From positions 6,099 to 70,098 of the forward strand of contig JBDRXL010000005.1 in the NCBI GenBank assembly GCA_039802865.1: a stretch of DNA of 64,000 nucleotides. Direction: 5' to 3'. The position numbers and the translations under genes are program-made. The notes beneath the pieces are model-generated. The model did no database searches. It was given only the letters and a program-made list of their open reading frames with translations, and had not been told where the DNA came from. The DNA is from a candidate division WOR-3 bacterium (GTDB lineage Bacteria; Hydrothermota; Hydrothermia; LBFQ01; DSFT01). The number at the start of each line of letters is the position of its first letter. Position 1 is the stretch's first letter. Positions 20,066 through 40,966 of this stretch are shown here, piece by piece.

Positions 20066-21180
20066 TTTTCTTTTAATTCCCTTAATAACTCATCCATTTC
20101 TTCCTTTATATGCCAAGGCATTTGAGCATAAACATCTTCAAATGTTGTTTCAGGTCCAGGTAAAGGTCTCTTTTCTGCTTCATCAATAGCTTTATTTAAT
20201 TCATCCTCAATCTGCTCATCTAGTTCTTTTTCCCATTCTTCATTCCAAATTCCAAGCCTTTGTAAATATAATCTTGCTCTCTTAATTGGATCCCATGTTT
20301 TTTGCCAATACTCAAGTTCTCTCGGATCTCTATACCTATCTGCTTGATCTGCTGTTGAATGAGAACCATATCTATAAGTTAAAGCTTCAATTAATACAGG
20401 TTCTTTGTTATGGGCTTTTTCAAATGCTAATTTAGTAGTAGCATAAACTGCCAAAAAGTCATTCCCATCAACATAATAACCTTCCATACCATAAGCAATT
20501 GCTTTAATTGCTATATTTTTAGAAGCATATTGTCTTTTAACAGGAACAGATATTGCCCAGTGATTATTTTGAACAAAAAATACAACTGGCGTTTTAAATA
20601 CCCCTGCCATTGTAAGAGCAGAATGAAAATCACCTTCCGCTGTTCCTCCATCTCCTACATAAACAATTATTGCTTCATCCTTTTTTAAATAATTTATAGC
20701 CATTCCTATACCAACCGCTTGTGGAAGCTGATTTCCAACAGGACTAGAAATAGTTATAATTCTTAATTTTCTCATACCCCAATGGACTGGCATTTGTCTT
20801 GCTTTATTAACTTCCATTCTACCCATTACTTGTGCAAACATTTCAACAAGTGGATAACCTCTTACAAGATAAACTCCATGCTCTCTATGAGCAGGAAATA
20901 TCCAATCATTTTCAGGCACTGCATAACCACTTGCAACAGTTGCAGCCTCTTGACCGGCAACTTCTACATAAAATAATGCTTTTCCAGAACGAGTTAAAAA
21001 CATTCCCTTTCTATCAAAAGCCCTTGTTAATTTCATATAATAATATAATGTCTTTAAATCTTCCTCGGTAAGTCCTATATCTTCTGGTGTAAAGTCAAAT
21101 AAAGGCTCTCCCTCACTTGATATAAATCTTATAGGTTCATCTGTAAATGGTTGAATATAATTTAAAGTTTTTTCAGTCAT
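20056..21180 (-). CDS. pdhA: 2-oxoacid (pyruvate or branched-chain) dehydrogenase E1 alpha subunit
   Basis: GQEA, GNQLPQAVG, GDGGTAEGDF..N (ThDP motif), YRYGSHSTAD. Confidence 0.85.
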   Translation of the reverse strand: MTEKTLNYIQPFTDEPIRFISSEGEPLFDFTPEDIGLTEEDLKTLYYYMKLTRAFDRKGMFLTRSGKALFYVEVAGQEAATVASGYAVPENDWIFPAHREHGVYLVRGYPLVEMFAQVMGRMEVNKARQMPVHWGMRKLRIITISSPVGNQLPQAVGIGMAINYLKKDEAIIVYVGDGGTAEGDFHSALTMAGVFKTPVVFFVQNNHWAISVPVKRQYASKNIAIKAIAYGMEGYYVDGNDFLAVYATTKLAFEKAHNKEPVLIEALTYRYGSHSTADQADRYRDPRELEYWQKTWDPIKRARLYLQRLGIWNEEWEKELDEQIEDELNKAIDEAEKRPLPGPETTFEDVYAQMPWHIKEEMDELLRELKEKGA

Positions 21181-21195
21181 AGTGAAAATTATAAA
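21171..21195 (-). repeat. Direct repeat copy (-10 box, start codon and first codons of pdhA); partner at 23223-23247
   Basis: Minus strand TTTATAATTTTCAC-TA-TGACTGAAA vs TTTATAATTTTCAC-AT-TGACTGAAA, 23/25 identical. Confidence 0.8.
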
Positions 21196-21202
21196 GTAGA
21201 AT

Positions 21203-21761
21203 CTAATAAATCAATTTAAGTGTTTGTTTAAAAAATTGTTCTAAACTCATTTCACTTTTTATGAAATGTTTCAAAGAAGGTGTTAAATCTGTTTTATCTA
21301 TTCCATCACTTATTTTAACCTTGTTTAAATAAGACTCTATTCTCCTATTACTATAACCACTGGTACCAGGGCCTTTTCCTAAAATTTCTTCAATAATAAT
21401 CCGGTGAATGAAAAAATTTTTTCTATCTTCAAACAACTTAATATACTTCCCAGCGTTTAATATTTCCTCTTCTTTCAAAATAAAATCCAATACCAAGAGA
21501 CTTTATATTAGCACATTCTCCCAAAAGATTTTCAAAAAAATTATTAACATTTTGTTTATAACTCAATAGTAATATCAACCCGCTTAGGATAGTATCTTCC
21601 ATCTATAACTATCTCTTTTCCATTTAAGTAATTTACTTTATACCTATTGCCAAGAATATTCTGATAAGTTTCACCTAACCATGTATGAACTGGCCTAATT
21701 TTTTCTAAGATTCAGCCAAAGCTTTAAAAAAGCCTTCTTTTCTTATTTTTACATTGTTCAT
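21203..21761 (-). pseudogene. Degraded restriction endonuclease gene
   Basis: ATG 21761 gives MNNVKIRKEGFFKALAES then TAG at 21705. Later fragments (YYPKRVDITIE; SYKQNVNNFFENLLGECANIK) lie in different frames. Position directly after the MTase remnant. Confidence 0.55.
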
Positions 21762-23232
21762 AATATACCTCTTCTAAAAAACTATCTATAATATCTTTAC
21801 TTTCCTCTTTCCTTAAAAAATTTACTTGTTCTTGACTTAAATGCGGAATACCAAAGTTCATTAAAAATAACTTAGAATAACTTTTCCACCCACCCTGATA
21901 ACTTTTTGAAACATTTTCAATATAAATTTTCATAATTTTTGAATTTAAAATTTTCCTTAATAAGTATAAATCAGTAAAAGGCTCTATTTTAGGAAAAATT
22001 CCATATCCACTATAAAATGTTGTATCTTCTTTTTCACATACTACAAATGTTGGATTCAAAGCCATAGGTGGGGTCAATATTTTCCTTCCAAACGTTGTAT
22101 TTATTCCCTGTGTTCTCCCAAAAGCGAACCATGTTTCATAAGTTTTCTTACCTCTATCTCTATTTAAAAGTATATCTTTTACTCATCTTCCTGTATAATT
22201 TCGTAAGCCTTACTAACTTTTTTATATGGGAAAATTACTGACTTTTATTATCTCTTTTGTTATTTCCTTCTCTATCAAAAATTTTCTTCCATTGAAAAAC
22301 TTAACAAAATAATCACCTTCTTCAACTACATTTTCAATTATATAAATCTCATCTTTTAAAGTGGCAAGTCCTACTCTAATGTCCGCTATGTCTTTTAACC
22401 TATAAGCTTGATTTTCAATAGCTTGGATAATATCTCTATTACTTAAAACCCATATATTATGATTTAGTTCATCAAAGTATATCCTTTCACTATCCAAACT
22501 ATCCAATTTTTGAATCTGACTGGGATTTTTTACTTTTTTAAATATGAAATAGTTTTTCTTTCTCTTTGAAATTATTATTATAGAAGTATAAGCTGATACT
22601 TTGTCAAATACCTGAAAGTGGTCAAAATCAATTACCTCTTCAATTAGTTTGTTTTCCTGCAAAAATTTTCTTAAATTTTTCCTGCATAAGAGGTAAAATA
22701 ACTATTGGGTGTTATATAACCCAATTTTCCATTTTCATCTATTAATTCTATACCTAATTCTATAAATGGTATAAATATATCTGTATCTCCCTTTATAAGT
22801 TTCCAATGTTTTTTTATTAAATTTCGTGTATCATCATCCAAATTCTGTATTCTTACATATGGCGGATTTCCTACAACCGATTGAAATTTTTTATTTCCGA
22901 AAATTGATTTTATAAATGATTTATCTAAACTATTTTTCAAAAACGACAAGAGATAAAAGCTCCTTTGCTAACTATACCGCTTTTGAATCAATATCTATTC
23001 CAAAAATGTTATTTTCAACTATTTCCTTATAACTTTTTCCCGTTTTTTGCTTTAATTTAAATAATGCATCAAGAAGAAAAATTCCATTTCCACAAGCAGG
23101 GTCTAAAACCAAAATATCTTTTGATTCATTTTCCACTATTGTTTTTCTGTTTATATAATCAACTACGAATAATGGAGTATAAACTATTCCCTTTTGTTTT
23201 CTATGTATTTTTAATAATTTTCTTTCAGTCAA
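21724..23232 (-). pseudogene. Fragmented N6-adenine DNA methyltransferase (Eco57I/TaqI-like)
   Basis: Track fragments: 22972-23232 (GIVYTP, DPACGNGIFL, GIDID), 22671-22949 (VVGNPPY), 22222-22662 (DFDHFQVF, IRVGLAT), 21724-22077 (LNSKI, GGWKSY), in different frames. Confidence 0.85.
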
Positions 23233-23247
23233 TGTGAAAATTATAAA
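23223..23247 (-). repeat. Direct repeat copy supplying the -10 box and TTG start of the MTase remnant
   Basis: See partner 21171-21195. Confidence 0.8.
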
Positions 23248-30715: not shown

Positions 30716-31120
30716 GTGATAAGTATTAGTAAAAGAGAAGGATATTCTCCAATTCAAGTAAATCAAACAAATGATAGAGGTTTTTTAATTGTTGGTAATG
30801 GTTCTATTATTAGGTTAGATAAATATGGGAATATAAAATGGAAGAAAGCTACTAATAATATTTCTTCTTATGTTCCTCTTATTCAAACAAATGATAGAGG
30901 TTTTTTAATTTTTGATGATGGCTATGTAATCAAGTTAGACAAGGATGGAGATATTAAATGGAAGAAAATTGTAATAGAAACCGTAAGTAAAATAAGTAGT
31001 ATTAGTGATTTTGCTTCTATGATCCAAACAAATGATGAAGGCCTTTTGATTGTTAAAAATGGTTTTCTCCTTAGGACAAAAAATGGAAAATTAGTAATTA
31101 ATGCTTTAAAATTTTCATAA
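30716..31120 (+). pseudogene. Remnant of a beta-propeller repeat gene (about 2.5 repeats)
   Basis: Three (I/N)QTND(R/E)G(F/L)LI units; 28-bp exact repeat at 30763-30790 and 30883-30910; no signal peptide. Confidence 0.5.
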
Positions 31121-31122
31121 AT

Positions 31123-31644
31123 ATGATTATTTATCCATATAAAGGAAAATATCCAAAAATAAGTCAAACTGCTTTTATTGCTCCAAATGCTGTTATTATT
31201 GGAGATGTTGAAATTGGGGATTATAGTTCTATTTGGTTTTCTTGTGTGATTAGAGGGGATGTTCATTATATTAAAATTGGAAATTATACGAACATTCAAG
31301 ATTTAACGATGATACATGCAGAAAGAAATAAATATCCTACAATTATTGGAAATTATGTTTCAATTGGTCATAGGGCAATTATACATGGTTGTATTATAAA
31401 TGATTATGTTCTAATTGGAATGGGAGCAATTATTTTAAATAATGCATTTATTGATAGTTATACAATTGTTGCTGCTGGCTCTGTTGTAAGGGAAGATTTT
31501 AGAGGGGAAAAGGGGGTTTTAATAGCAGGAGTTCCAGCGGTTATCAAAAGAAAATTAACAGATGAGGAAATTGAACTAATTAAAGATATACCACAAAGAT
31601 ATGTAAATTATTCAAGGGATTATATAAATGAAGGGATTAAATAA
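31123..31644 (+). CDS. Gamma carbonic anhydrase-family hexapeptide-repeat protein
   Basis: AVIIGDVEIG, SIWFSCVIRGD, NIQD..MIH, IGH..IIHGC. Confidence 0.9.
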   Translation: MIIYPYKGKYPKISQTAFIAPNAVIIGDVEIGDYSSIWFSCVIRGDVHYIKIGNYTNIQDLTMIHAERNKYPTIIGNYVSIGHRAIIHGCIINDYVLIGMGAIILNNAFIDSYTIVAAGSVVREDFRGEKGVLIAGVPAVIKRKLTDEEIELIKDIPQRYVNYSRDYINEGIK

Positions 31645-31897
31645 AGCTATTGAAAATTATTTAAAATTATCAGGTCTTGAATGGATATTGGATTATATAG
31701 ATGTTAAAGAAATTGCAGAAAGTGTTTTAAAAAGTTATGATTTTGTTGAATTTGAAGATTTTAAAAATGGTATTCTGTTTTTAAAAGTAAAAGATAAAAG
31801 AAAAATTATGGAATTTCACTATAAAAAATTTGGTATTATAAAAGCAATAAATACCATAGCAAGAAGAGATATTGTAAAAGATATTGTTTTAAAATGA
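31628..31897 (+). CDS. Small hypothetical protein, DciA/DUF721-like
   Basis: 89 aa, FKNGILFLKV...EF.YKK..IIK.IN pattern. Confidence 0.45.
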   Translation: MKGLNKAIENYLKLSGLEWILDYIDVKEIAESVLKSYDFVEFEDFKNGILFLKVKDKRKIMEFHYKKFGIIKAINTIARRDIVKDIVLK

Positions 31898-33417
31898 AAA
31901 AACTTCTTTTTCTTGTTTTTTTTATATCTTGCCAACAACCCTTTATATTTAGAAAAAAACCCATTCTTATTGATACAACGGGAACTGTTTTAAATGTTGA
32001 GCCAATTGTAAGGGTAAAAATAGCTCAAGCGGATAGTTTTAATTTGGAATTTTCAGATAGTTTTTATATTATTAAACAAGATACAATTTTAAAGGGATTT
32101 AAAGGAAGTTTATTGTTAAAGTTTTTTGAAGGAAAATCTGCCAAATTAAAATATTATAAAATCCTTGGAAGATATAATAATGTTCCAGATGCTATTTTAG
32201 AAATAGCTTCACTTTCAAAATCAAAACTGAATTTTGAAATTAAGACAATTGGTATAAAACTTTCAAATGTTGATACAAGGGAATTTTTATTATTAGAAGG
32301 ACCATATGAAAAAATTGATAGTTTTATAGAAGGCAAAATTTTAGCTTTATTAGATAAAAGACAAATAGGCAAGATTTTTATTAAATATAATAATTTTGAA
32401 AAAGTTTTAGAAATACCTTTTGAAATTCATTCAAAATCACCTATCACAATAAAAAATTTCCTTTTAGATGATGGACTAAACCCACCAACTATTACAACAA
32501 GAAGTTATGAAGGTTATTTTGAAGTTTGGACTGATATTAATGGTAATCAAGTTTTAATAATAAATGTTATAAATTTTGAAAATTATATTAAGGGAATTTT
32601 GCCTTATGAAATGTCAAATAATTTTCCACTTGAAGCATTAAGAGCACAAGCAATTTTAGCAAGAAGTCATGCTTTAAGTGTTTATAGAAAAAAATTAATG
32701 TTATTATATCAACCCTATGATTTAACATCAGATGTATATACACAAGTTTATGGTGGAACGAAGGATGTAAATGATAATGTAAAATTAGCAGTAGATTTAA
32801 CAAGAGGTTTATTTTTAACATTTAATAATAATATTGTTTATGCATTGTTTCATTCAAGTTGTGGGGGAATTTTAGATGATGGGAACTTGTGGAATAAACC
32901 TTTGGATTATTACTTTTCAAGGCTTGACAATGATGAAAATAAATTTTTAGATTTAACAAATGATAGTTTGGTTAAAAAGTTTGTAGATAATGATAAATTA
33001 AATGTTTATTGTAATAATAAAAGCTTTATTGGAGCAAAAGAAGCCTTTAGATGGAAACAAGTTTTTAAAATATCTGAACTTGAAAAGAAATTAAATAGAA
33101 AAATAGTTGGTTTTGAGGTATTAGAAAGAACAAAAGCAGGAAGAATTAAAAGTTTAAAAATAAAATTTGAAGATGGTGATAGTGTAATTAATGGGGAGTT
33201 GAATATAAGGAAATTCTTTTATAAAAATGGCTATTTAAGAAGTGCTTTATTTTATTATGAAATTAAGGGTGATAGTTTGATTATAAAAGGAGCGGGATTT
33301 GGTCATGGAATTGGACTTTGCCAATATGGAGCAGGAGAAAGAGCATTAAAAGGTCAATATTATTATCAGATTATAAATGCTTATCTAAATGGTGTTGAAA
33401 TTAAGAGATTATATTAA
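31894..33417 (+). CDS. SpoIID/LytB-domain lipoprotein
   Basis: Lipobox-like FISC, YIKGILPYEM, EALRAQAILARS, QVYGG, FHSSCGG, GFGHGIGLCQYGA. Confidence 0.88.
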   Translation: MKKLLFLVFFISCQQPFIFRKKPILIDTTGTVLNVEPIVRVKIAQADSFNLEFSDSFYIIKQDTILKGFKGSLLLKFFEGKSAKLKYYKILGRYNNVPDAILEIASLSKSKLNFEIKTIGIKLSNVDTREFLLLEGPYEKIDSFIEGKILALLDKRQIGKIFIKYNNFEKVLEIPFEIHSKSPITIKNFLLDDGLNPPTITTRSYEGYFEVWTDINGNQVLIINVINFENYIKGILPYEMSNNFPLEALRAQAILARSHALSVYRKKLMLLYQPYDLTSDVYTQVYGGTKDVNDNVKLAVDLTRGLFLTFNNNIVYALFHSSCGGILDDGNLWNKPLDYYFSRLDNDENKFLDLTNDSLVKKFVDNDKLNVYCNNKSFIGAKEAFRWKQVFKISELEKKLNRKIVGFEVLERTKAGRIKSLKIKFEDGDSVINGELNIRKFFYKNGYLRSALFYYEIKGDSLIIKGAGFGHGIGLCQYGAGERALKGQYYYQIINAYLNGVEIKRLY

Positions 33418-33436: not shown

Positions 33437-35347
33437 ATGAACGACAGAACCATAGTTGTAGCAGGACATGTAGGAAGTGGAAAGACTACTTTAATTGCCC
33501 AAATTTTAAAAATTACAAATACTATACAAAAGGTAGAAAAAAGCTTGCTTGATTATGACCCTATTGAACAATCTAAAAATATGACTATAAACTTAAAAGC
33601 TTTCAGAACAAAGTATAAAGAATATGACTTTCAATTTATAGATACACCAGGATTTATTGAGTTTGAAGGTGAGCTTATGAGTGCGGTAAGAGTTGCTGAT
33701 AATATGTTAATTGTTGTAGATATTTCAATGGGAATAGAAGTCGGTATTGAAAGGGCATTTGAAGAAGCAAAAAAGTATAATATTCCTATATTTTTTGCAA
33801 TAAATAAGTGTAAAAGTTATGAAAAGGACCCACAAGAGATTTTAAATTTATTAAAAAGCAAATTTTCAAAACAAGTTCATCCTGTCCAAATACCAATTGG
33901 AATAGGTAGTAATTTTAATGGAGTTTTTGATATAATAAATGGAGATTATAATTTGCTTGATGAAAATCTAAAAAAACAAGCTACGGAAAAATATGAGGAA
34001 TTTATAGAAGCGGTAGTTGAAACAGATGATGAATTGCTTGAAAAATATATTCAAGGTGAAGAGATTAGCAAGGAGAAAATTCATGATATTTTTAGAAAAG
34101 CAGTAGATAATAGTTTGTTTTATCCTGTTTTATACATAGATGCATTAAGTGGAGTTGGGGTTAATGAATTATTAGATTTTATTGGAGAATATGGAATTTC
34201 ATTTAAAGAGAGATATGATGATAAGCCTTTTAGCTCATTATTGATATTTAAAACATATTCAGAAGCTCATCTTGGAGAAATGTATCTTTTTAGAGTTTAT
34301 TCAGGAAAAATTACAACTGGTATGGAATTAAAAAATAGTAGAACAGGTACAATTGAAAAAATATCACATATATTTATTCCTTTTGGAAAGGAAAGAAAGG
34401 AGATAAATGAGTTAAAAATGGGAGAAATTGGACTTGTCTTAAAACTTAAAGATAGCAAAACAGGTGATACCCTTTCAAATGATAATATAACTTATGATTG
34501 GATAGAATATCCAGAACCATTATATGTAATAGGAATAAAGCCAAAAACTAAAAAGGATGAAGAAAAACTTTCAGAATCATTACAAAAAATTATGGCAGAA
34601 GACCCAACTTTTACATTTAAATATGACCCAAGTTTAAAACAAACATTATTTTATAGTCAGGGTGAAGTTCATACAAATATCATCTTAGAGAAATTAAAAC
34701 AAAGATTTTCAGTTGAAGTTGAAAAGGAAAAAGCAAAAGTTCCATATAGAGAAACAATTAGAAAGCCAGCAGAAGGACTTGGAAAATACATTAAGCAAAC
34801 AGGCGGTAGAGGTCAATATGGTGTTGCCAATATAAGAATTGAGCCACTTCCAAGGGGTGCAGGTTATGAATGGGTAGATAAAATTTTTGGAGGTGCAATA
34901 CCAAAGGAATATAGACCCTATGTTGAGCAAGGGGTTAAAAAGGCTATGGAAGAAGGATTTGTTCTTGGTTATCCAATTATAGATGTAAGAGTCATATTAT
35001 TTGATGGAAAATATCATGAAGTTGATTCTTCTAACTTAGCTTTTGAAATAGCAGGAAGTTTAGCTTTTAAAGATGCAGTAAGCAAAGCAGAACCATATAT
35101 GCTTGAACCTATTTATAATGTTGAGATTTATTCACCAGAAGAATATATAAGTGATGTAATATCTGAAATAAATACAAGAAGAGGTAAAATTATGAGTATT
35201 GAAAGTAATAAAATTAGTGCTCAAATACCACTTGCAGAACTATACGATTTCTTACCAGCTCTTAGGGCAAAAACAAAGGGAAGAGGGAGATTTAAGATGG
35301 AATTTTCACATTATCAGGAGGTTCCTATAAATTTAGTAAAGCAGTGA
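33437..35347 (+). CDS. Elongation factor G paralog (EF-G2-like)
   Basis: GHVGSGKTT, DTPG, INK, EDPT, VPYRETI, KQTGGRGQYG, HEVDSS, LEPIY; degenerate switch I. The second ATG fits the -10 spacing. Confidence 0.85.
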   Translation: MNDRTIVVAGHVGSGKTTLIAQILKITNTIQKVEKSLLDYDPIEQSKNMTINLKAFRTKYKEYDFQFIDTPGFIEFEGELMSAVRVADNMLIVVDISMGIEVGIERAFEEAKKYNIPIFFAINKCKSYEKDPQEILNLLKSKFSKQVHPVQIPIGIGSNFNGVFDIINGDYNLLDENLKKQATEKYEEFIEAVVETDDELLEKYIQGEEISKEKIHDIFRKAVDNSLFYPVLYIDALSGVGVNELLDFIGEYGISFKERYDDKPFSSLLIFKTYSEAHLGEMYLFRVYSGKITTGMELKNSRTGTIEKISHIFIPFGKERKEINELKMGEIGLVLKLKDSKTGDTLSNDNITYDWIEYPEPLYVIGIKPKTKKDEEKLSESLQKIMAEDPTFTFKYDPSLKQTLFYSQGEVHTNIILEKLKQRFSVEVEKEKAKVPYRETIRKPAEGLGKYIKQTGGRGQYGVANIRIEPLPRGAGYEWVDKIFGGAIPKEYRPYVEQGVKKAMEEGFVLGYPIIDVRVILFDGKYHEVDSSNLAFEIAGSLAFKDAVSKAEPYMLEPIYNVEIYSPEEYISDVISEINTRRGKIMSIESNKISAQIPLAELYDFLPALRAKTKGRGRFKMEFSHYQEVPINLVKQ

Positions 35348-36168
35348 AATTTCTAATTACAGGGGCTGGTGGATTACTTGGTTCTGAATTTAATAAAGTT
35401 GTTGTAGAGGAAAAATTAGCTTTAAAAAGAACTGATTTAGATATTACAAATTTTGAAGATGTTTATAAAATTGTAAAAAATTATAAACCAGATGTAATTA
35501 TAAATTGCTCCGCTTTGTCTAATGTAGATTATTGTGAGGAGCATTTTGATGAGGCAATAAATGTAAATGCAAAAGGAGTAGAAAATCTTTTAATTTCAGC
35601 TATTGAAAATAAATGTTTTTTAGTTCATTTTAGCACAGATTATGTATTTGATGGAAATAAAAACTCACCATATACAATTTATGATATTCCAAATCCTATA
35701 AATAACTATGGAAAAAGTAAGCTTATGGGTGAAGAAATTGTCAAAAATAGTAAATATGAAAATGTTTTGATAATTAGAACAAGTTGGCTTTTTGGAATTG
35801 GAAAAAGCTCATTTGTTAGTAAAATTTTAAATATGATAAATAATGAAGTAATTTATATGACGGAACAGATTTCAAATCCTACATATTCAAAAGATTTAGC
35901 AATAAGAGTTTATAAAATGATAAAACAAGGCTATAAAGGATTGTTTCATTTAACTGGGGCTTTAAGTGTATCAAGATATGAATTAGCAAAATATATTTTA
36001 GATATTGTTGGTTATAAAGGGAAAATAATAAAAGTAGAGAATTTTCCATCTATTGCAAAAAGACCAAGATATTCAAGCTTAGATAACTACCCCCTTGAAC
36101 CTTTAAGAGATTATAAAGTAGCAATTAAGGAATTTTTAAAGGAGTTTTATAATTTTAGAACTTTATGA
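35344..36168 (+). CDS. rfbD: dTDP-4-dehydrorhamnose reductase
   Basis: ITGAGGLLG, FSTDYVFDG, YGKSK, RTSWLFG, RPRYSSLD. Confidence 0.92.
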   Translation: MKFLITGAGGLLGSEFNKVVVEEKLALKRTDLDITNFEDVYKIVKNYKPDVIINCSALSNVDYCEEHFDEAINVNAKGVENLLISAIENKCFLVHFSTDYVFDGNKNSPYTIYDIPNPINNYGKSKLMGEEIVKNSKYENVLIIRTSWLFGIGKSSFVSKILNMINNEVIYMTEQISNPTYSKDLAIRVYKMIKQGYKGLFHLTGALSVSRYELAKYILDIVGYKGKIIKVENFPSIAKRPRYSSLDNYPLEPLRDYKVAIKEFLKEFYNFRTL

Positions 36169-36174
36169 ATAAGC
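36146..36174 (+). repeat. 29-bp perfect direct repeat, left copy
   Basis: tttataattttagaactttatgaataagc is identical to 38325-38353. Confidence 0.92.
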
Positions 36175-37583
36175 AAAGAGAATTTGGGATTCATCTTACT
36201 TCTACTGATATTTTTAGGGAATATATTTTGCCTGAAATTAAGGACGTGCTTTATAAATATACCTGGATAGATTTATTTGCTGGCGAAGGAAATTTAATCC
36301 TACCAATATTAGAGTTAATACCTAAGGATGAAAGAGTAAGCTTCTTTAAAGAGCATATTTTACTTTTTGATATTCAGCTGTAAATGGTTGAAAAGAGCAT
36401 TATAAATGCTATGAGCTATGGGATTCCTTATGAAATAGCTATGAAAAACATAAAAGTAAAAGATACATTATCTGATTATCCAGATTTAAGTTATCTTAAA
36501 TATCCACCATATCATATAACAAATCCACCTTATCTTTATGTGGGTTATATTTCAAAAAATTCTAAAAGAAATCTAAAGTATTTTTCTGGGTTAAATGAGG
36601 GTTATCAAGACCTATATCAGATTGCTTTAATGAATGATTTAAGGCATAACTTGGAAAGAATGATATATATTATTCCTACAAATTTCTTATTTGGTTTTTC
36701 CGTATCTAACAAAATTAGAAGAGATTTTCTTGAATTTTATAATATAAAAAAGGCAATTATTTTTGAAAGAAAAATTTTTGATTTTACTGGAACAAATGTT
36801 TGTATATGCTTTTTTGAAAGAAAACCTAAACCTTCAAGAGAACCAATTTCATTTAATGCTTTAAAAATAAATAGTAAAATTTTTGATAAAAAATATACCT
36901 TATATCCTGAAAATTCTTATAGAGCTGGAAGTGAATTTGAAGAATTTGTATCCCATTTCAAATCCAATTCACCTTTAAAAGTAAAGTTTTATTTAACCAT
37001 AGATGAGGTTGAAAAAAATCAGGGTAATAAGGAGGTTAAACTTTTAGATGCAAATAGCTTTCATAATGGTCGTTATCATATTATAAAGTGTTGTGTTAAT
37101 GAAAAGTTATATGAAAAATTGCAAAAAAATCCTTTATTTATAAGAACTTTGGATACAGGAAGTTGGAATGGAAGAGTGGGAATATATAATATTAAAGAGG
37201 TTTTTAATACTGATGGAATAGTGGTAACAAAAGAAAAATATCGCACTCATCCTATCCAAATTTTTATATCACCACAACTTTCATATGATGACTTGGACTT
37301 ATTGAAAAAATACTTCAATACAATGTTGGAATATTTTAGAAAAATAACTGATAGTGAGTTTTTAACAACTTTCAAGTATTCAGATTGTGATTATGTTAGG
37401 AAATACTTAGGATTATCACAGGCAGGAAAGTTAATAGAAACTTTTCCTATTCATTTAATGTCCTCTCAAAAAAAGCAAATGTTGAGAACTTTGTTGGAAA
37501 AGGGAGATATAGAAGGTATAAAGAATATTTTATTTGATTTCAAACATAAAAAACAAATTACCCTTTTTCAGGATTATGAATAA
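36165..37583 (+). pseudogene. N6-adenine DNA methyltransferase interrupted by one in-frame TAA
   Basis: 36165-36383 (DLFAGEGN, FDI) and 36384-37583 (TNPPY) are in the same frame, junction CTG TAA ATG. Confidence 0.82.
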
Positions 37584-38331
37584 ATGGATTGAAAAAAGTA
37601 TAAAATTGGCAAAAAGTGAGTTCTATCTGGATAAATTATTAGAGATATATCCACCAGAGGAAATTAGTAGAGAAAAACAAGTAGAGAGAGAATCTCCAAT
37701 TTTAAAAAGGCTCTTTCAAGAAAAGAATTGTAAAAAACTTCTTAGAGAACTTATACGCCTAAAGAAAATAGGGTTTAAATTTCCCATTGAAAATCCATAT
37801 ATTAGTTTTCTAAGTTATTATGAAGATGCTATTGACAAGAATCCAGAAACTATTAAGAAAATTTGTGAAAAGCTTTTTGAAATGAGTTATGATGAACTAA
37901 AAGATAGGTTGGAAGCACCAAAAAAGGCAAGTAGAAGAACTGGGCCAATGTTTAAATTGTGGCTTAGAAGTAAATTTAATTTTATAGATGTTAATGAATT
38001 TAGGAGAGCAAAGGGTATAGTTTTTCTAAATGGTGGAGATAAATTTTTAAAAGAATATGCAAAAAGTGAGTTAAAATGTAAATTCAAAGAATTAAGTAAA
38101 GGGTTGGACTTTATAGCAAGGGTTAAAAATAAGTATATAATTGGAACTGCAAAATTTATAACCGACATAGGTGGTTCTCAATCTAACCAATTTATTGAAG
38201 CATTAAGCTTAATAAAGGAAACGAAATGCTCTGAAAATATTATAAAAATTGCTATTATTGATGGTGCTCCTTGGTTAAATGAAAAAGAAAAAAATGAATT
38301 TTGTTTTAGTGCCTTAAACTATCCTTTATAA
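37576..38331 (+). CDS. Putative type II restriction endonuclease
   Basis: Coupled to the MTase stop; KGLDFIAR..YIIGTAKFITD.GGSQ, IAIIDG. Confidence 0.65.
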   Translation: MNKWIEKSIKLAKSEFYLDKLLEIYPPEEISREKQVERESPILKRLFQEKNCKKLLRELIRLKKIGFKFPIENPYISFLSYYEDAIDKNPETIKKICEKLFEMSYDELKDRLEAPKKASRRTGPMFKLWLRSKFNFIDVNEFRRAKGIVFLNGGDKFLKEYAKSELKCKFKELSKGLDFIARVKNKYIIGTAKFITDIGGSQSNQFIEALSLIKETKCSENIIKIAIIDGAPWLNEKEKNEFCFSALNYPL

Positions 38332-38353
38332 TTTTAGAACTTTATGAATAAGC
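38325..38353 (+). repeat. 29-bp perfect direct repeat, right copy (-10 box and first codons of the mutase subunit)
   Basis: Identical to 36146-36174. Confidence 0.92.
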
Positions 38354-38760
38354 CAATTAAGGTGTTGATTGGAAAGGTTGGTTTAGATGGTCATGATAGA
38401 GGAGCAAAAGTTTTGGCAAGGGCTTTAAGAGATGCAGGAATGGAAGTTGTATATAGTGGTCTTCATAGAACTGCAGAAGAAATTGTTCAGATGGCAATTG
38501 ATGAAGACGTTGATGTAATTGGTATATCTATATTATCAGGAGCTCATATGACGTATTTTCCAAAAATTCTAAAACTTATGAAAGAAAATGGTCTTGAAGA
38601 TGTTCTTTTAATTGGAGGAGGAATTATTCCAGAAGAAGATGCAAGAGAATTAGAAAATATGGGTGTTAATAAAATTTTTGGACCCGGAACTCCACTTGAA
38701 GAAATTATAAGTTATATTAAGAATTGGTATGAAAAGAAGAAATTAACAATTGTTAGATAA
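38344..38760 (+). CDS. Cobalamin-binding subunit of a methylmalonyl-CoA mutase-type enzyme
   Basis: [10 protein letters not shown] (DxHxxG), [20 protein letters not shown]. Confidence 0.92.
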
Positions 38761-39133
38761 AGCATTAAATTATATAAAGTTTTCATACGCTCCATATTCT
38801 AAATTCAAAGTTGCTTGCATTTTAATTGCATCAAATGGAATTGAAGAAAAAGAATTTTATGGAGTAAATGTTGAAAATGCATCTTATGGACTTACAATAT
38901 GTGCTGAAAGAGTTGCTATATTTAAAGCAATTTCAGAAGGTTATAACAAATTATTAAAAATGTATCTTGTAGCAGTTGATGAAAATAACAATGAAGTTTT
39001 AAATATTATGCCTTGTGGGGCTTGTAGGCAAGTCATATTTGAATTTTCGGATAGTCTAAAAATAATTACAAGGAGTGGTGAATTTGATATTAAGGAATTA
39101 TTACCTTTTGGCTTTAAAATTTTAAACCTTTGA
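38750..39133 (+). CDS. cdd: Cytidine deaminase
   Basis: [28 protein letters not shown]. Confidence 0.92.
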
Positions 39134-40041
39134 AATTTGACAATATCTTTAAAATAAGTGCTCTTATAAGCTCAATTTTTGTAATTTTAATTCCACTTTC
39201 TATTTTAATTACTCTCTATGTGGAATCAAGTTTAGCTATTAATAAGTTTGGAATTGAATTTCTTTTCAATGCGACATGGGACCCCGTAAAGGAAGAATTT
39301 GGGGGGTTAGTTCCAATTTTAGGAACAATTTTAAGTTCAACAATAGCATTGATTTTAGCTATAATAATGGCTTTTGCAATAGCTATATTCATAACAGAGC
39401 TTTGCCCCAGATTTTTAAGAAATTTCTTTCGTTCAGTTTTTGAATTATTAGCAGCAATTCCAAGTATTATATATGGTATTTGGGGACTTTTTGTATTAGT
39501 TCCTATTATGAGAAGTTATGTGGAACCATTTTTAATTAAAAGTTTGGGATTTATATCAATTTTTAAAGGTGAGCCTTTTGGTATAGGACTTTTAACTGCA
39601 GGTATTGTTCTATCAATAATGATAATTCCATATATTTCATCTATAATGATTGATGTTTTTTTATTAGTTCCAAGTGTTTTTAGAGAATCGGCATATGCAC
39701 TTGGTGCTACGAGGTTAGAAGTTATTAAAAGTGTTGTAATTCCATATACAAAAAGTGGTATTATTGCAGGTATTATTCTTGGACTTACAAGAGCTCTTGG
39801 TGAAACTATGGCAGTTACTTTTGTAATTGGGAATTTATATAAAATTCCAAAAAATATATATGAACCCACTATTACTATTGCTTCATCCTTAGCAAATGAA
39901 TTTACAGAAGCAACAACTGACTTATATCTTTCAAGTTTGTTTTATTTGGCATTTGTTTTATTTTTCATCTCTTTAATAATTATTTCAATTTCAAGATTGC
40001 TTATTTATAGATTACAAAAATGGGAAAGAGAATCTTTTTAG
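39130..40041 (+). CDS. pstC: Phosphate ABC transporter permease PstC
   Basis: WDP....FG, LAAIPSIIYG, ESAYALGAT, RALGETMAV. Confidence 0.92.
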   Translation: MKFDNIFKISALISSIFVILIPLSILITLYVESSLAINKFGIEFLFNATWDPVKEEFGGLVPILGTILSSTIALILAIIMAFAIAIFITELCPRFLRNFFRSVFELLAAIPSIIYGIWGLFVLVPIMRSYVEPFLIKSLGFISIFKGEPFGIGLLTAGIVLSIMIIPYISSIMIDVFLLVPSVFRESAYALGATRLEVIKSVVIPYTKSGIIAGIILGLTRALGETMAVTFVIGNLYKIPKNIYEPTITIASSLANEFTEATTDLYLSSLFYLAFVLFFISLIIISISRLLIYRLQKWERESF

Positions 40042-40835: not shown

Positions 40836-40884
40836 ATAATTTAGTTTTATACCATTAATTAAGTTTTAAAGGTTTAAAATTTCA

Positions 40885-40966
40885 AGCTTCCATTTAGGAA
40901 GTTGTCACAAGCTTAGCGTTGTAATAATGCCCTCCACCCACACCCCTTTGGGGGTGGGCTAATCAC
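40885..40966. other. Two intergenic hairpins, each followed by TCAC (terminator or IS200/IS605-like end remnant)
   Basis: CTTCC-ATTTA-GGAAG then TTGTCAC; CCCAC(A)CCCC-TTT-GGGGGTGGG then CTAATCAC. Confidence 0.4.

Follow-up and report, generated by a model that had tools for sequence, protein, structure and literature searches.

A 64,000-nucleotide stretch of DNA from an uncultured WOR-3 bacterium carries a restriction-modification (R-M) cassette between two perfect copies of a 29-bp sequence. The question raised by this locus is whether the repeat is the scar left by insertion of the cassette or a product of later events. The stretch as a whole is called the window here. It corresponds to C5:6099–70098 of genome G000, an assembly of 1.64 Mb in 54 contigs, and coordinates are positions in the window. 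All loci, alleles and relatives described are known from metagenome assemblies. Insertion of R-M genes with long target duplication was reportedly described by Nobusato et al. in 2000, and a preliminary description of the window had assigned the repeat to such an event. We favour a different order of events. A decaying Tsp45I-family cassette was probably in place before the repeat arose, the right copy is the native one, and the left copy would be a later, partial copy of a promoter and start codon rather than an insertion scar. The parts of the locus are listed below; the short allele is a second form of the locus found in the same species.

35344–36168, + strand: rfbD, dTDP-4-dehydrorhamnose reductase (PF04321, E 2.3e-69; table of open reading frames, ORFs)
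36146–36174, + strand: left copy of the 29-mer, composite (sequence search, allele comparison)
36146–36156, + strand: first part of the left copy, TTTATAATTTT, an 11-mer common to the short allele (allele comparison)
36157–36170, + strand: second part of the left copy, AGAACTTTATGAAT, apparently copied from the mutase promoter and start (allele comparison)
36171–36174, + strand: third part of the left copy, AAGC, a possible microhomology with the methyltransferase (homolog comparison)
36165–37583, + strand: remnant of an N6-adenine DNA methyltransferase (MTase; PF02384)
37576–38331, + strand: remnant of a Tsp45I-family type II restriction endonuclease (REase), 251 aa (PF06300, E 2.6e-57)
38073–38331, + strand: cassette pieces that survive in the short allele (allele comparison)
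38317–38324, + strand: AACTATCC, probably the native flank directly 5′ of the mutase promoter (comparison with G004)
38325–38353, + strand: right copy, with the −10 element TATAAT, an 11-nt spacer, ATG and the first 3 1/3 codons of the mutase subunit (conservation in relatives)
38344–38760, + strand: host gene for the B12-binding subunit of a methylmalonyl-CoA-mutase-type enzyme (PF02310, E 8.5e-28)

The 29-mer TTTATAATTTTAGAACTTTATGAATAAGC occurs at 36146–36174 and 38325–38353 with no mismatch between the copies. No third copy with up to three mismatches was found in the window, where none is expected from shuffled sequences, or in the whole 1.64-Mb assembly. The bases next to the repeat differ between the copies, with T and C before the left and right copy and A and C after them, respectively. 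Within the 2.15 kb between the copies, PF02384 and PF06300 were the only ORF families detected, and no mobility gene was found. The left copy holds the final seven rfbD codons (FYNFRTL) and the rfbD TGA, which overlaps the MTase start codon (ATGA); rfbD of the short allele and of the relatives stops earlier, at a TAA of its own. The stop codon of the REase is the TAA inside the TATAAT of the right copy. The mutase subunit, whose gene heads a block conserved in synteny in relatives (followed by cdd, pstC and pstA), starts with MNK at the right copy, and the MTase ORF starts with MNK at the ATG of the left copy. Thus, the preliminary description was right that an R-M cassette lies inside a unique, perfect direct repeat rather than a dispersed one, that the repeat carries the conserved −10 element, ATG and first three codons of the downstream gene, and that the MTase begins like the mutase subunit because the repeat supplies its start.

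The relatives indicate which of the two copies is native. The mutase promoter and start, TTTATAATTTTA(G/A)(A/G)ACTTT-ATG, is kept in the related genomes G001–G004, in L066 and in five contigs from a JGI metagenome scan for this pattern, despite differing upstream genes; all five contigs are from the G002-like species and none from the species of the window. The 9 nt before the right copy, AAACTATCC, match the corresponding AAATTATCC of G004 at eight of nine bases. The promoters of G000 itself are also informative. The motif TTTA[AT]AATTT lies within 30 nt 5′ of the start at 336 of 1517 crude gene starts (~22%), mostly ending 6–10 nt before the ATG, and a Shine-Dalgarno-like word is present at only 370 of the 1517. 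The promoter consensus is aaGCTTTAAAATTTT, and the module takes the form G-C-TTTAWAATTT, then 3–7 nt, then ATG, so many genes of G000 appear, judged by their sequence, to use leaderless or near-leaderless signals. Among 307 gene-proximal promoters, position −1 is C in 91% and T in 3%, and the base before it is G in 54%. At the variable motif position A predominates (97%, versus 3% T), and the mutase promoter belongs to a group of about ten genuine T-variant promoters. The right copy has both the motif and the C at −1, with a spacing of 11 nt at the edge of the usual 6–10 nt range. The left copy has the same motif and the same 11-nt spacing, but it is preceded by GT and therefore lacks the conserved C, with T at −1. 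By these comparisons, the right copy is the native mutase promoter and start. A sigma-70 consensus scan does not inform on promoters of this type: it yielded 25 sites where 25.6 were expected, and neither copy was among them.

Duplication of a target at insertion predicts that the native flank should stand before the left copy. Here, both the C at −1 and a flank like that of G004 stand before the right copy instead. The relatives that lack the cassette point in the same direction. G003 has the synteny of an EF-G-like gene, rfbD and the mutase gene with no cassette, and in L066 (GCA_900175145.1) rfbD lies directly 5′ of the mutase gene. At both empty sites rfbD ends at its own TAA, followed by a spacer of 19–24 nt and a single promoter copy. 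The expectation that cassette-free relatives carry one copy was thus borne out. The expected seamless junction, in which removal of the cassette and one repeat copy would restore rfbD..GGAGT-TTTATAATTTTAGAACTTTATGAATAAGCC, was not found, because the TAA and the spacer intervene.

Both genes of the cassette are damaged at the repeat. In the MTase, MNK is fused in frame at the position matching residue ~38 of homologs of 505–506 aa, and ~37 N-terminal residues are gone; the sequence after MNK, QREFGIHLTS, aligns with ..KRREFGAHLTS.. of the homologs L037 and L040. Further on, an in-frame TAA at 36381–36383 (codon 73) stands where homologs carry E (DIQKEMVEK) and is directly followed by ATG (TAAATG). 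This stop, which all long alleles now contain, divides the gene into ORFs of 72 aa (with DLFAGEGNL, motif I) and 399 aa (with NPPY, motif IV); from its sequence, such a two-chain MTase (72 + 399 aa) might conceivably still be active. The homolog L040 is likewise split, at another place (351 + 159 aa). The REase has 251 aa compared to 263–273 aa in 11 aligned homologs. Eight internal residues near its C-terminus are missing (WLGGKMKSTLEKLKNNEF versus WLNEK..EKNEF), and its last ~10 residues are lost, with ..FCFSAL continuing into NYPL and a stop in place of ..SALLLEEFIK..; homology to the family stops just before AACTATCC. Since the MTase and the REase are truncated there, both repeat junctions lie inside genes. 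The assignment to the Tsp45I family rests on an REase match to PF06300 of 194.8 bits (cut-off 25) next to an MTase with motifs I and IV, although neither frame is full-length and intact. Among 5.8 billion proteins, no close intact relative of the cassette was found, and the best non-self matches are 73% (REase) and 75% (MTase) identical.

Contigs of the same species were collected by exact-protein look-up, with flanks 99.1–100% identical to the window, and they contain two alleles of the locus. The long allele, with both 29-mers and the 72 + 399 split, is identical in at least nine independent assemblies or contigs made with different assemblers, among them several metagenome-assembled genomes at NCBI, three Logan runs and one JGI sample. 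Metagenomes with the long allele include SRR27730046, SRR27730012 and SRR27730013, and SRR24079435 and JGI 3300038392 are further sources for the two alleles. The short allele is present in GCA_039802905.1, GCA_039802985.1, ENA ERZ4756919 and SRR27730027, with two further similar contigs and flanks 99.7–100% identical. It reads ..AAAGGAGT-TTTATAATTTT-GTT TAA, ATTGTTGATGAATTTAGGAGGAC, AAAATG.., followed by the equivalents of 38073–38112 and 38166–38331, then by AACTATCC, the promoter and the mutase gene. Of the left copy it retains no more than the first 11 nt (rfbD..GAGT-TTTATAATTTT), and the rfbD stop comes next. The piece 38073–38112 has two mismatches, and 38113–38165 are deleted between ATAG microhomologies. 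In addition, the short allele has 29 unique nucleotides (in the region of GTTTAAATTGTTGATGAATTTAGGAGGAC) that have no counterpart in the long allele or anywhere else in G000. They supply an rfbD stop where the relatives have one and terminate in AGGAGG-N5-ATG, plausibly the ribosome-binding site and start of the original MTase. Since each allele keeps sequence that the other has lost, neither is ancestral to the other, and their mutual losses point to a common ancestor in which the cassette was present and the left copy still incomplete. The 3′ truncation of the REase and the deletion of eight codons are common to both alleles and are therefore older changes. The two forms are a pair of natural alleles in hot-spring WOR-3 populations that could be used to study R-M decay.

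The following model would account for these observations. The ancestor would have carried the cassette, TTTATAATTTT at the end of rfbD and probably AAGC at MTase codon 37/38, in the layout ..TTTATAATTTTGTTTAA..AGGAGGACAAAATG leading into MTase codons 1–37. A tract of 14–18 nt (AGAACTTTATGAAT, plus AAGC) would then have been copied leftwards over 2.2 kb from the promoter and start of the mutase gene; the only sequence in the left copy that must be new is AGAACTTTATGAAT. The copying could have proceeded by template switching, or by ectopic conversion of a short patch, with the 11-mer and AAGC as anchors. Alternatively, the cassette could have been duplicated in tandem through AAGC, and the stretch between the two 11-mers then deleted. 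The event would have cost the locus ~140 nt: the rfbD stop and the spacer, the MTase leader (ribosome-binding site and ATG included) and codons 1–37 of the MTase. The outcome would be MNK in frame on the MTase body and the ATGA overlap between rfbD and MTase. AAGC is present at the matching codon of the homolog L037 (AAA AAG CGA AGA GAA TTT), one of four homologs, and the 11-mer is a rare T variant of the generic −10 motif. The preliminary description supposed that the incoming gene now uses the copied signal; this may be so, but the left copy has no C at −1 and the MTase frame is broken by a nonsense codon. Any expression of the MTase from the copied signal may not depend on the −10 element alone. 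Given the ATGA overlap and the lack of C at −1, coupling to rfbD could be as important for its translation as the −10 element. The copy may have rescued methylase expression under an active REase, or it may have been neutral in a dead cassette.

Two other loci of G000 fit the same pattern:

21171–23247, − strand: second R-M remnant (N6_Mtase, Eco57I and TaqI_C fragments, several stops), 5′ of pdhA (family matches)
G000:C24:7638–8666 (L076:2639–3667): third locus, a 1-kb insert 5′ of a carboxyltransferase gene (genome-wide scan)

At pdhA, a repeat of 25 nt with 23 identical positions, TTTATAATTTTCAC[AT/TA]TGACTGAAA, places a copy of the conserved pdhA promoter, start and first 3 1/3 codons on the remnant of an Eco57I/TaqI-type MTase. 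AC stands before the right copy and GA before the left, so that the C at −1 is found on the right only. This remnant has decayed more heavily than the Tsp45I-family cassette. A population look-up found three contigs; the one compared starts inside the cassette, and no alternative allele was seen there. At the C24 locus, a repeat of 29 nt with 28 identical, AATTGCTTTAAAATTTTAAATGGT[T/C]ATCA, flanks an insert with an ORF of 74 aa starting MVI and a class-I S-adenosylmethionine (SAM) methyltransferase of 254 aa; the carboxyltransferase also starts MVI. The insert is present in all 20 population contigs examined, and no empty site was found among them. All three repeats end at ATG+10 and all give in-frame fusions. 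Among 132 similar promoter-module pairs in the genome, three have their two members within 2.2 kb of each other, compared to ~0.2 expected. An upstream R-M remnant with a partial copy is carried by two of about ten T-variant promoters versus one of about 298 A-variant promoters. This enrichment fits homology-dependent copying, which would need identity between a TATAAT-type promoter of the cassette and the host promoter. From these three loci, two with R-M remnants and one with a 1-kb insert encoding a SAM-methyltransferase, we suggest only tentatively that leaderless signal modules of 25–30 bp, together with the first three codons, are recurrently copied onto the 5′ ends of adjacent foreign genes. 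If true, this would be a regular and possibly selected route to expression for acquired genes, and a new, testable route for taming them; for R-M systems, the lethal effect of lost methylase expression could enforce the copying. Further repeat pairs on contigs C16, C22 and C30 were set aside as chance or paralogous repeats. A HEAT-like ORF of 70 aa 5′ of the pdhA remnant has no homolog in the relatives.

Several points weigh against a later copying of the left repeat. None of the alleles found has an intact MTase 5′ end, and the nearest homologs are only 72–75% identical, so the ancestral state had to be inferred, and the short allele is itself derived. The 29 unique nucleotides of the short allele match the G003 spacer at 15 of 19 bases, a score reached by 680 of 5000 shuffles and thus not significant alone. 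A TATAAT at a similar distance is present in only one of four homologous cassettes (L037). The 11-mer lies at the 3′ end of the upstream gene in the same frame (E-[F/I]-Y-N-F) at two independent loci; unless the 11-mers are promoters of the cassettes themselves, this coincidence is an awkward one. Nor does the model predict the common end point of all three repeats of G000, exactly 10 nt past that A with which the ATG begins. Finally, every sequence used comes from metagenome assemblies.

The most obvious alternative is that R-M insertion doubled the 29 bp as a long target and that the short allele arose later by deletion with 29 nt of filler. A unique, perfect direct repeat that brackets R and M genes with no mobility gene is what this class of event leaves, examples of the class are on record for every R-M type (PMC2853133), and a dedicated mechanism would suit both the signature at two further G000 loci and the common end of all three repeats at ATG+10. 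We nevertheless regard it as unlikely. Only the right copy follows a C at −1 and a G004-like flank, both cassette genes are cut at the junctions, the empty sites in two species are not seamless, and the repeat of 29 bp is under the class criterion of 30 bp (PMC2853133). The proposed filler of the short allele is found nowhere in the genome and yet gives a stop where the relatives have one. For the same reasons, and because the short allele keeps only 11 nt of the left copy next to sequence now gone from the window allele, the duplicated-target claim of the preliminary description was not upheld. An already truncated R-M fragment could instead have been inserted in one step by template switching of the kind seen in microhomology-mediated break-induced replication (MMBIR). 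Replication would have switched from the host template to the foreign fragment at ATGAATAAGC and returned to the host 5′ of the promoter, and the left flank would have been altered later. Such a route accounts for the AAGC microhomology at the left junction and for a fragment that ends within genes. It is still less probable, since it predicts the native flank (AAACTATCC and C at −1) before the left copy, where it is not present, and leaves unexplained the rfbD stop and spacer that follow the 11-mer in the short allele.

It could also be argued that no copying took place and that the two 29-mers are independent instances of a strong promoter consensus with common first codons. Near-identical promoter/start modules of 21–29 nt do stand before unrelated or paralogous genes of G000, with 13 exact pairs among 844 modules. 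The pair at this locus, though, is identical at 19 variable positions, including an atypical 8-nt stretch between motif and ATG, and shares the unusual 11-nt spacing from TATAAT to ATG; it ranks top among module pairs, the three close pairs among 132 exceed the expectation of ~0.2, and the left copy lacks the C at −1. Independent origin is thus very improbable. Even less credence is given to an artefact, that is, a chimeric contig or one mis-joined at the repeat, a concern that arises with data made up of metagenome assemblies. The long allele is identical in at least nine contigs from various assemblers and sources and the short allele is found in at least four, which makes an assembly error very unlikely, and a repeat of 29 bp is shorter than a read. 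Our preferred reading remains that part of the mutase promoter and start was copied onto an older, decaying cassette.

Furuta, Abe and Kobayashi (2010) required for the long-target-duplication class R and M homologs in an insert of less than 20 kb, repeats of more than 30 bp and one copy in the empty genome (PMC2853133). The present locus has R and M homologs, an insert of less than 20 kb and no other mobile-element genes, and it resembles the class further in its unique direct repeat and in the single copy of the relatives. It differs in the length of the repeat (29 bp, of which only 14–18 bp are demonstrably new), in a left copy that is not contiguous with the native upstream flank, which stands at the wrong copy, in the truncated genes and in a sister allele that has the cassette without the full repeat. 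Because it fails in length and in flank, we did not assign the locus to this class. Template switching or ectopic conversion also bears a likeness to the locus, with a short tract between homologies of 11 and 4 nt, a distance within 2.2 kb and loss of the intervening recipient sequence. It is set apart by the copying of a complete expression signal, in frame to a foreign gene and at three loci, and by an ancestor that is reconstructed. Amplification of R-M genes mediated by repeats is known (PMC2853133). In promoter capture or N-terminal fusion, too, a foreign ORF comes to lie behind a resident promoter and start codon, but here the resident signal would have been duplicated and not usurped, which is possible because a leaderless signal takes up only ~25–30 bp. 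The locus illustrates that a very small piece of DNA can redirect expression in an organism with heavy use of leaderless genes. It also gives reason for caution: what looked like a textbook R-M target duplication proved, once population alleles were compared, to be best read as a secondary rearrangement of an older, decaying cassette, and an empty site from the same species should be available before the repeats around R-M genes are taken for insertion scars.

The cassette resembles R-M systems of the Tsp45I type (GTSAC) in its full-length PF06300 match, in the adjoining gamma-class N6-MTase (FxGxG, NPPY) and in the order M then R, as in all five homologous cassettes examined. The likeness is one of sequence; both genes are damaged here and the nearest homologs are only 72–75% identical. 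GTSAC (GTCAC/GTGAC), the Tsp45I site, is the most depleted pentamer in G000, with 98 occurrences compared to 307 expected (observed/expected 0.32, rank 1 of 1024), followed by GTWAC (0.41) and then CASTG and GASTC (0.41). This points to long-lasting restriction pressure at GTNAC-type sites in G000, a specificity that would have shaped the genome over a long time, and GTSAC is the predicted specificity of the cassette itself. In G002, a related cassette is found elsewhere (G002:C26, L100), with an MTase 57% identical and an adjoining REase only 32% identical, and G004:C87 (L101) has only a short MTase remnant. These cassettes at other sites in congeners suggest that this R-M type comes and goes in the genus.

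Some strain differences were observed around the locus. L053 and L054 differ from the window by 12 single-nucleotide polymorphisms in 934 nt (34993–35926), yet they are identical to it over the cassette and the next 1.2 kb, and L055, a short-allele contig, matches the window at 100% of the flanking positions. The pattern points to recent recombination or a sweep over 35927–39521, or else to chimeric consensus contigs. In the spacer between pstA and a gene with a metallo-beta-lactamase fold, L054 and the window differ by a 42-nt strain indel at 40868–40909. On the other side of the cassette, the SpoIID-like gene 5′ of the EF-G-like gene (31104–33417) is inverted in G003 (L035).

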